Virus record (IMG/VR): IMGVR_UViG_2671180724_000020
From: a virus
Lineage: Duplodnaviria > Heunggongvirae > Uroviricota > Caudoviricetes
Direction: 5' to 3' (one strand)
Length of the DNA stretch: 20,469 nt
A model generated the notes under the pieces. It made no database searches and was not told where the DNA came from. It saw only the letters and a program-made list of their open reading frames with translations. The position numbers were made by a program, and so were the translations under genes. This document shows, one piece after another, positions 18,373-19,431 of the stretch; within the stretch, counting starts at the first letter, position 1; each line of letters starts with the position of its first letter.

Positions 18373-19431
18373 ATGAAAAATACTGTAAAAATAAACAGTG
18401 TTGATTTAATCAACGCTGATTGCCTGCATTTTATTCAGTCCCTGCCTGATGATTCCATTGACCTGATTGTTACCGATCCGCCTTACTTCAAGGTGAAACC
18501 CAACGGTTGGGACAATCAGTGGAAAGGGGACGAAGATTACCTTAAGTGGCTGGACCACTGTCTGGCCCAGTTCTGGCGGGTGTTAAAACCTGCCGGAAGC
18601 CTTTACCTGTTCTGTGGGCATCGCCTGGCATCTGATATTGAGATCATGATGCGTGAACGTTTCAACGTGCTTAACCATATCATCTGGGCGAAGCCGTCCG
18701 GACGTTGGAATGGGTGTAATAAAGAACGTCTGCGCGCATATTTTCCTGCCACAGAGCGCGTTCTGTTTGCTGAACATTACCAGGGGCCATATCGCCCGAA
18801 AGATGCCGGGTATGAGGCGAAGGGCAGGGCACTGAAACAGCATGTGATGGCCCCGCTGATTTCTTACTTTCGTGATGCGCGTGCTGCTCTGGGGATAACG
18901 GCAAAACAGATTGTGGATGCCACAGGAAAGAAAAACATGGTGTCGCACTGGTTCAGTGCCAGCCAGTGGCAGTTACCGAACGAGGATGATTACAGAAAAC
19001 TTCAGGTGCTGTTTGCCCGGGTGGCAGAAGAGAAACATCAGCGGGGTGAACTGGAAAAGCCACATCACCAACTGGTCAGCACATACAGTGAGCTGAACCG
19101 GCAGTATGCCAGCCTGCTGGAAGAGTACAAATCACTGCGGCGTTATTTTTCCGTATCGGCAGCCGTTCCTTATACGGATGTCTGGACGCACAAGCCTGTG
19201 CAGTATTATCCGGGCAAACATCCCTGTGAAAAATCGGCAGATATGTTGCGGCAAATGATTACCGCCAGCAGTCGTCCGGGAGACCTGGTTGCAGATTTCT
19301 TCATGGGGTCCGGTTCGACAGTCAAAGCAGCGAATGCACTGGGGCGTCGTGCAATTGGCGTTGAGCTGGAGACCGGACGTTTTGAGCAGACCGCAAGGGA
19401 TGTACAGAATTTAATCAGAAAGAGAGAGTGA
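18373..19431 (+). CDS. DNA N6-adenine (or N4-cytosine) methyltransferase, N6_N4_Mtase family, orphan
   Basis: Motif IV DPPY (IVTDPPYF) near the N-terminus and motif I FxGxG (FFMGSGST) near the C-terminus, i.e. a beta-class amino-methyltransferase. No restriction endonuclease partner is visible. Confidence 0.85.
   Translation: MKNTVKINSVDLINADCLHFIQSLPDDSIDLIVTDPPYFKVKPNGWDNQWKGDEDYLKWLDHCLAQFWRVLKPAGSLYLFCGHRLASDIEIMMRERFNVLNHIIWAKPSGRWNGCNKERLRAYFPATERVLFAEHYQGPYRPKDAGYEAKGRALKQHVMAPLISYFRDARAALGITAKQIVDATGKKNMVSHWFSASQWQLPNEDDYRKLQVLFARVAEEKHQRGELEKPHHQLVSTYSELNRQYASLLEEYKSLRRYFSVSAAVPYTDVWTHKPVQYYPGKHPCEKSADMLRQMITASSRPGDLVADFFMGSGSTVKAANALGRRAIGVELETGRFEQTARDVQNLIRKRE

Follow-up and report, generated by a model that had tools for sequence, protein, structure and literature searches.

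The closest described relative of the gene studied here is M.EcoGII of E. coli O104:H4 C227-11, which has a paralogue, M.EcoGI, in the same strain. M.EcoGII is a non-specific N6-adenine methyltransferase and was introduced as one of 'a very large family' in E. coli prophages (PMC5778455). Genes of the M.EcoGI/GII type are silent in lysogens and harmful when expressed, with constitutive strains that grow slowly and are unstable (PMC5778455), and homologues at ~93% similarity in Shiga toxin-producing E. coli are tabulated as 'nonspecific', no motif having been detected in lysogens (PMC6602927). M.EcoGII also methylates RNA in vitro (PMC5778455) and is active without a small upstream protein, and it is ~90-fold faster on DNA than on RNA (Table S3 of PMC11551740). 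Protection from restriction has been proposed as its role (PMC5778455), and the enzyme is now a widely used chromatin-footprinting reagent. Our subject is a methylase gene of this kind, together with the leader RNA and the small gene that precede it, in 20,469 nucleotides (nt) of DNA from a Caudoviricetes virus (IMG/VR record IMGVR_UViG_2671180724_000020). This whole stretch is called the window in what follows.

The methylase and its likeness to M.EcoGII

The gene and the parts of it that matter for the comparison are listed here by position in the window, with amino acid (aa) numbers of the protein where they apply.

18373..19431, + strand: M.EcoGII-family beta-class N6-adenine DNA methyltransferase gene, predicted; 352 aa, ATG start, stop codon included, intact open reading frame (ORF)
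18475-18486, + strand: catalytic motif IV, DPPY, aa 35-38; read from the sequence and invariant in 27 family members
18727-18729, + strand: codon of the substitution Ser119Arg; Ser in 121 of 134 family members, ERL in 2 of 134
18850..19083, + strand: predicted target-recognition domain (TRD), aa 160-237; limits from PMC11551740, 72 of 78 residues as in M.EcoGII
19219..19236, + strand: HPCEKS, the conserved HPxxKP motif with Ser288 in place of Pro (Ser codon 19234-19236); from the family alignment
19300-19314, + strand: motif I, FMGSG, aa 310-314, binding S-adenosylmethionine (SAM); read from the sequence, FMGSG in 127 of 134 family members

Judged by its sequence, the window protein is a member of the M.EcoGII family of prophage N6-adenine methyltransferases, and M.EcoGII is likewise a PF01555 beta-class protein of ~350 aa that is prophage-borne and orphan. 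The PF01555 (N6_N4_Mtase) match spans aa 29-340 with E=4.5e-42 and 144.9 bits against a cut-off of 26.7, and it is the only Pfam match of the protein. DPPY comes before FMGSG, which gives the beta-class motif order. The ORF, the Pfam match and the order of the motifs therefore all agree with an earlier note on this DNA, which had called the gene a beta-class amino-methyltransferase with DPPY ahead of FxGxG. Phage methyltransferase families of the PHROG collection are matched at E~1e-100, and the closest PADLOC model is that for Type II methyltransferases ('MTase_II', E=3e-153). A phage Dam-like GATC methyltransferase of the M.EcoVT2Dam or M.EcoGV type can be ruled out by the DPPY-then-FxGxG order and by the lack of any Pfam match to PF02086 (MethyltransfD12) or PF05869 (Dam) in the protein. 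The alpha-class motif order is that of the Dam-type methyltransferases, and in related prophages the PF02086 and PF05869 domains sit in separate genes. The methylase itself is already known, since its family has been characterised and the identical protein sequence is public on 32 contigs (for example WP_053900038.1 and CTR58506.1).

Aligned over the full length, the window protein and M.EcoGII are identical at 305 of 348 residues (87.6%), where the reference is the sequence in Table S1 of PMC11551740, machine-read from a PDF with a few obvious errors, and the true identity is probably ~88%. The comparison thus rests on this machine-read sequence and on the homologue from phage 1720a-02, which is 87% identical to the window protein. 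The phage 1720a-02 enzyme has been named as very similar to M.EcoGII, with a layout of DPPY, central TRD and FxGxG (PMC5778455). When the alignment is divided by the published domain limits (PMC11551740), the identity to M.EcoGII is 88% in the N-terminal catalytic part, 92% in the TRD and 84% in the C-terminal part. The charged linkers are identical at 25 of 25 residues (100%) for linker 1 and 17 of 23 (74%) for linker 2, and lysine and arginine together number 20 over aa 135-260, equal to the count in M.EcoGII. The window protein departs from M.EcoGII by ~43 substitutions, the unusual Ser288 and Arg119 among them, and its C-terminal tail is 3 aa longer. The reconstructed ancestor Anc291 is 85% identical to the window protein and 84% to M.EcoGII, and SUPREM is 70% identical to the window protein; both were reported to be non-site-specific (PMC11551740). 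Because of the overall identity to M.EcoGII and the still higher identity of the TRD, the predicted activity is adenine methylation without sequence specificity. The target specificity had been described earlier as not deducible by eye, and it is the homology that now supplies a prediction.

The nearest relatives with solved structures are the beta-class enzymes M.RsrI, M.MboIIA, CcrM, M.HpyAVI/DpnA and the 8URK/9C3U methyltransferase. Their catalytic core can be aligned with that of the window protein in two blocks, one around DPPY and one around HPxxK(P/S)...FxGxG. However, they do not have its helical insert of ~150 aa, which is made up of the linkers and the TRD, and no similarity of these enzymes to aa ~115-280 of the methylase was detectable. 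In the published models of M.EcoGII the TRD is a helical bundle with a helix-turn-helix (PMC11551740). Our own AlphaFold2 model of the methylase, generated from a 27-sequence alignment, is of low confidence (mean pLDDT 59) and too poor for a fold search. We used only its secondary structure, which is helical in the TRD region, and relied on the published models for the rest.

The small upstream gene and the structured leader

Two elements lie directly ahead of the methylase gene.

18019..18222, + strand: small winged-helix ORF, 67 aa (75 aa from an upstream ATG at 17995); PHROG 331 (phrog_331, E=1e-24)
18237..18372, + strand: conserved structured 5' leader of the methylase gene, ~135 nt; from the alignment and an RNAalifold consensus

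What may be new here is the leader RNA with its link to the methylase, a modestly interesting side result that we have not found described; literal leader strings were found in no papers. An alignment of the 175 nt upstream of the methylase ATG from 50 loci shows hardly any variation across Enterobacterales in the final ~135 nt, both in loci with the small ORF and in loci that do not have it. No Shine-Dalgarno sequence was found before the methylase ATG. In the RNAalifold consensus a helix P1 (UGGGC/GCCCA) is formed around the hairpins P2 and P3, followed by a hairpin P4 and a conserved tail. In an alignment of 42 sequences, 95.9% of the cells are paired as compared to 23-49% when the partners are slid by 1-3 columns, and 6 pairs are changed on both sides as compared to 1.9±0.9 in shuffles (1/500). 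One pair of P3 illustrates this, being C-G in 20 of these sequences, A-U in 10, U-A in 7 and U-G in 4. A larger alignment of 58 sequences, which was fitted to a covariance model and so leans toward the structure by construction, is 97.0% paired and has 9 double-changed pairs against 3.3±1.0 in shuffles (0/500); across both alignments the slid controls range over 22-50%.

The association with the methylase extends well beyond the loci that were first aligned. The covariance model built from the first alignment (R1) finds the leader just upstream of distant methylase homologues in Zooshikella (49 bits, E~1e-11), Gilliamella (23 bits) and, marginally, Acinetobacter (19 bits), and these distant leaders carry compensatory changes in P1, P2 and P3. 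At least 120 IMG/VR contigs hold a match to a degenerate 28-nt pattern of the leader, and an M.EcoGII-like gene starts 46-48 nt past the pattern in 118 of the 118 matches with enough downstream sequence. The mean pairwise identity of the leader is 84%, while the adjacent catalytic domain has 87% at codon positions 1+2 and 52% at position 3. The leader is thus conserved about as well as codon positions 1+2, which indicates strong purifying selection on this non-coding leader.

Several other accounts of the conserved block were considered and set aside. It does not behave as a coding ORF or a coupling upstream ORF: the 33-codon ORF seen in the window is broken in other loci by 1-nt indels, the indels fall in loop regions, and there is no start codon ahead of the TGA located 3 nt before the ATG. 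An antisense RNA from the minus strand is disfavoured by the frequent U-G pairs (20 sequences at one position), which fit the plus strand only. Alternative pairings (GGCCCAC/GUGAGCC, the P3 3' strand with the tail CGCUU, and AUCAG/CUGAU near the start codon) show no consistent compensation. Rfam 15 gave no match to the leader at E<=1 over 15900-20469, and at E<=10 over 18200-18400 only chance-level matches on the opposite strand. Among described small RNAs, AgvB, AsxR or another EcOnc RNA was set aside because the printed sequences of AgvB, AsxR and EcOnc03 are visibly unlike the leader, and StxS because it lies between the late promoter pR' and tR' in phages that do not have the methylase.

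Of the Enterobacterales loci checked, about two-thirds have the small ORF, which ends ~150 nt ahead of the methylase ATG. The more distant methylase homologues do not have it, and in others unrelated cargo is found in its place. The family has an invariant CQLILTQL core, and an AlphaFold2 model of the 67-aa protein (pLDDT 85.8) is a winged helix with H-H-H-beta-beta topology. The fold matches of this model are generic, all at E >= 6e-3, and include the IclR and TrmB DNA-binding domains, Z-alpha and the SelB RNA-binding domain. Some databases label relatives of the small ORF as TrmB or IscR family regulators. The small ORF is not a catalytic subunit, because M.EcoGII is active without it. In Rosenbergiella collisarenosi (locus L055, 1207-3678) the leader and methylase are preceded, in place of the small winged-helix ORF, by an 823-aa ORF with an NPPY methyltransferase-like motif.

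We put forward, as a possibility that we rate a little short of even, that this three-stem leader, which we did not find described and which precedes M.EcoGII-family genes throughout Enterobacterales and, it appears, in Zooshikella, Gilliamella and Acinetobacter, gates the translation of the toxic non-specific methylase. It might do so by binding the winged-helix protein in the manner of com-mom of phage Mu, through autoregulation by the methylase, or by sensing a small molecule such as SAM or S-adenosylhomocysteine.

Late transcription, orphan status and the prophage locus

The features that bear on the transcription of the methylase, and the genes around them, are as follows.

15952..16329, + strand: antiterminator Q gene; PF06530, E=5.2e-52
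16353-16796, - strand: membrane-protein gene, 147 aa, between Q and pR'
16800-17741, - strand: DUF6731 gene, between Q and pR'
17812..17840, + strand: putative late promoter pR' (TTACCG, 17 nt, CTTAAT); placed by comparison with phage 933W, hexamers uncertain and weak
17842..17901, + strand: initial transcribed region, homologue of qut and the first terminator; 80.6% identity to 933W 20693-20753
17876-17896, + strand: hairpin with T-run, terminator-like; from a terminator scan, conserved in Klebsiella and Salmonella loci
18212..18234, + strand: hairpin over the small-ORF stop codon, then a U-rich run; weak here

Stx phages transcribe from pR' constitutively, and without the action of Q the transcript is terminated, as mapped by differential RNA sequencing (dRNA-seq) and Term-seq (PMC7547250). 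In the record of phage 933W, the annotated pR' spans 20666-20693, qut 20707-20714 and a rho-independent terminator 20726-20748. The methylase is probably a Q-dependent late gene, because it lies downstream of the segment that is homologous to this pR'/qut/terminator region. The second hairpin, at 18212-18234, has as its counterpart a strong intrinsic terminator in many homologous loci, such as CCTTCAGTCCTGAAGGCTTTTTT in phage 1720a-02. A position behind two hairpin/terminator elements in the late transcript agrees with the silence reported for M.EcoGI/GII genes in lysogens. Upstream of the small ORF there is also a block, CTTGCTGG-N9-GAC.AGAGTTAT at 17950-17995 (+ strand), that is conserved in Escherichia, Klebsiella and Salmonella despite their differing Q proteins. 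Its form (TTGCTG, 17 nt, TAT(T/C)NG) resembles the tRNA promoter pT described below, and it may be a weak promoter or operator.

The window covers the left half of a lambdoid prophage; its genes include an integrase, a cI-like repressor, Rha/Ash-type regulators, a DnaC-like loader with a DnaB helicase, DUF968, Q, the methylase, tRNAs and TerB. The PF06530 match and the tRNA coordinates place the methylase between Q and the tRNA cluster, where the earlier note had located it, and its account of the gene as a prophage-borne orphan holds up in the window as well: from the integrase to TerB there are ordinary lambdoid genes and no restriction endonuclease adjoining the methylase. The note had also considered an endonuclease just outside the window. 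The methylase gene of E. coli fS25a is 100% identical, and the 20-kb flanks of that locus hold no endonuclease, the only nuclease-like gene being an HNH gene beside the terminase; downstream are tRNAs, TerB, DUF3927, lysis genes and head/tail genes. A Type II restriction-modification system, which would have a cognate endonuclease adjacent to the methylase, is therefore rejected.

We also considered the minus-strand DUF6731 and membrane-protein genes as a cognate nuclease or defence partner. The pair is not the cognate partner, because it has no PADLOC match and is found in 25 of 5426 complete E. coli genomes as compared to the 2712 of 5426 with methylase homologues (up to 8 copies per genome). 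It is also absent from the otherwise collinear phage 1720a-02, and it is an independent insertion and not a partner of the methylase. At the corresponding site a different two-gene cassette is found in E. coli O121 (locus L009, 1921-3382) and an AAA_13 ATPase in Erwinia (locus L007, 2182-4578). The site between Q and pR' looks like a hotspot for accessory or defence-like genes.

Among Stx2c-converting phages, 15 hold copies of the methylase at 99.8% nucleotide identity, and those of 1720a-02 and phiP27 are at ~85%. The order of antiterminator, often a small ORF, methylase, and then holin/lysis genes or tRNAs is also seen in prophages of Klebsiella, Salmonella and Erwinia, where the antiterminators belong to different families. 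An M.EcoGII-like gene is missing from phage 933W, which nevertheless keeps ~110 nt homologous to the methylase 3' end before its tRNA promoter: window 19321-19431 corresponds to 933W ~20969-21080 (locus L080, ~3970-4082) within an alignment of 82% overall identity. This remnant suggests that the module of small ORF and methylase was deleted in the 933W lineage.

The features downstream of the methylase are the following.

19434..19462, + strand: putative tRNA promoter pT (TTGCTG, 17 nt, TATCAT), between the methylase stop and the first tRNA; aligned with pT of 933W
19472..19704, + strand: tRNA cluster of tRNA(CAT), a degenerate middle tRNA and tRNA-Arg(TCT)
19472-19547, + strand: tRNA(CAT); Met according to ARAGORN, Ile in RefSeq for the identical gene, 933W homologue named ileZ
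19548-19627, + strand: degenerate tRNA between the other two; homologous to argN of 933W, with a 12-nt deletion across the anticodon arm
19628-19704, + strand: tRNA-Arg(TCT)
19802-20305, + strand: TerB-family gene; annotated start probably the internal ATG near 19874
20302-20469, + strand: DUF3927 gene, after TerB

The middle segment is called as a tRNA by neither ARAGORN nor Rfam, and together with its deletion this leads us to regard it as degenerate. Past the tRNAs, TerB and DUF3927 stand where stxAB is found in Stx phages, as different cargo at the same insertion site.

Weighing the explanations against known systems

Taken as a whole, the best explanation of the locus, which we hold to be probable, is a methylase of the M.EcoGII family that is non-specific, made late in dependence on Q, and protects phage DNA. 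As judged from its homologue, the enzyme, probably a homodimer, would transfer a methyl group from SAM to the N6 of adenine in DNA in any context, and would methylate RNA more weakly. The position of the gene suggests that it would be transcribed only when Q carries RNA polymerase from pR' through the upstream hairpin/terminator elements. The lysogen chromosome would then be spared and the replicating phage DNA heavily methylated before packaging, and the methylated progeny DNA should be less open to Type I, II and III restriction on entering the next host. More speculatively, the toxic enzyme may also be controlled post-transcriptionally by the structured leader with no Shine-Dalgarno sequence, perhaps together with the upstream winged-helix protein if Mu com-mom is a guide.

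Some points weigh against this explanation. In the literature that we found, anti-restriction by the M.EcoGII family is proposed, with no demonstration in vivo. The putative pR' has weak hexamers and is not listed by a consensus promoter scan, which was set aside as a source for it in favour of homology to 933W. The M.EcoGII reference is machine-read, and its error-corrected sequence had no exact match in a database look-up. Additionally, Ser288 or Arg119 could lower the activity of this allele.

The last of these points leads to the view that the allele is weakened or inactive, with an intact gene for a poor enzyme decaying in a prophage, which we think unlikely. KP is found in 132 of the 134 family sequences gathered and KS in this exact sequence only, which makes Pro288Ser unique at an otherwise invariant position. 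Ser119Arg lies in the reported dimer interface, where residues 116-140 are fully conserved between M.EcoGII and reconstructed ancestors (PMC11551740), and the prophage that holds the identical copy in E. coli fS25a has an IS66 insertion, and its portal gene is frameshifted. However, the ORF is full length with its other motif residues intact, the leader and small ORF are intact as well, and the exact protein recurs on the 32 contigs mentioned above. The allele of Stx2c phages also has Arg119 and differs from the window protein by S288P and Q294R only, and from this we take Ser288 to be derived. An inactivating effect of Ser288 is counted less likely because the active M.HpyAVI (PDB 5HEK/5HFJ) carries HPTQKS at the aligned position, with Ser opposite 288. 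We find it still harder to credit that the methylase is a sequence-specific orphan Type II methyltransferase with a short motif of its own. Relatives are named 'site-specific DNA-methyltransferase' in RefSeq/NCBI, the closest PADLOC model is 'MTase_II', 6 of the 78 TRD residues differ from M.EcoGII, and a site-specific relative, M.PflMI, is found in the wider sequence cluster with a similar predicted overall fold that includes the TRD (PMC11551740). But these names are generic pipeline labels, and the TRD and linker 1 are 92% and 100% identical to M.EcoGII. M.PflMI, set apart here by its published description, does not have the highly charged interdomain linker that the window protein keeps, and Anc291 and SUPREM are more divergent and still non-specific.

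Two further alternatives concern what the enzyme acts on and when, and both seem to us very improbable. The main substrate could be RNA (e.g. rRNA), so as to tune translation or prophage induction, perhaps with guidance from the small upstream protein. M.EcoGII does methylate RNA in vitro, a small predicted nucleic-acid-binding protein with SelB and Z-alpha among its fold matches is encoded just upstream, and there is a precedent in M.EcoPA8orf6770P/PNB-2, a Dam-like 16S rRNA methyltransferase of the MT-A70 family from a Stx prophage (PMC10810198), which is likewise a prophage methyltransferase with a small upstream partner protein, PNB-2. However, that enzyme is encoded in another part of the phage genome and the window protein matches PF01555 only, and identity with it is rejected. 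M.EcoGII strongly prefers DNA, as noted above, and residue 179 of the window protein is Gln as in M.EcoGII, where SUPREM has Glu and its E179Q mutant methylated RNA 3.4-fold less well (PMC11551740). The small ORF is also missing from about a third of the loci. The other alternative is an epigenetic role, with the methylase made in the lysogen to regulate genes of the host or the prophage. The orphan methyltransferases Dam and CcrM act in this way, and a weak promoter-like block lies before the small ORF, but no methylation by homologues is detected in lysogens, their constitutive expression is harmful, and non-specific methylation carries no positional information. Of the two roles suggested by the earlier note, protection from host restriction is the one we favour. 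Against an epigenetic role in the lysogen stand the reported silence there of M.EcoGI/GII-type genes and the harm they do when expressed (PMC5778455, PMC6602927), as well as the position of the gene behind a late promoter, two hairpin/terminator-like elements and a leader with no Shine-Dalgarno sequence.

The earlier note was right overall, but generic. The gene call itself carries little weight, given that the family was characterised in 2018 and that homologues occur in half of the complete E. coli genomes. It does follow from the expected non-specific adenine methylation that the database label 'site-specific DNA-methyltransferase' is probably wrong for this clade. Also of some use, the leader and its frequent winged-helix partner gene offer a testable handle on how a toxic enzyme stays off in lysogens.

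Compared with known phages, the locus is closest in layout to 1720a-02, phiP27 and the Stx2a/Stx2c-converting phages, which share its slot after Q, its small upstream ORF and leader, and the 352-aa length of the methylase. It differs from them in having TerB/DUF3927 cargo after the tRNAs instead of stx, and in the minus-strand cassette between Q and pR'. In the manner of control the comparison is with mom of phage Mu and its translational activator com, where a DNA-modification gene is silent in lysogens, toxic and made late; Mom has been paired with M.EcoGII in this respect (PMC12707154). As in com-mom, an ORF of ~65 aa and a structured leader precede the modification gene of the window. Com is a zinc-finger protein, whereas the candidate protein here is a winged helix, and the small ORF is missing from about a third of the loci. 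To our knowledge Mom is not a methyltransferase, and we know of no sequence or fold relation between com-mom and the window pair. By analogy, then, it is the arrangement of small ORF, leader and methylase that recalls com-mom control.

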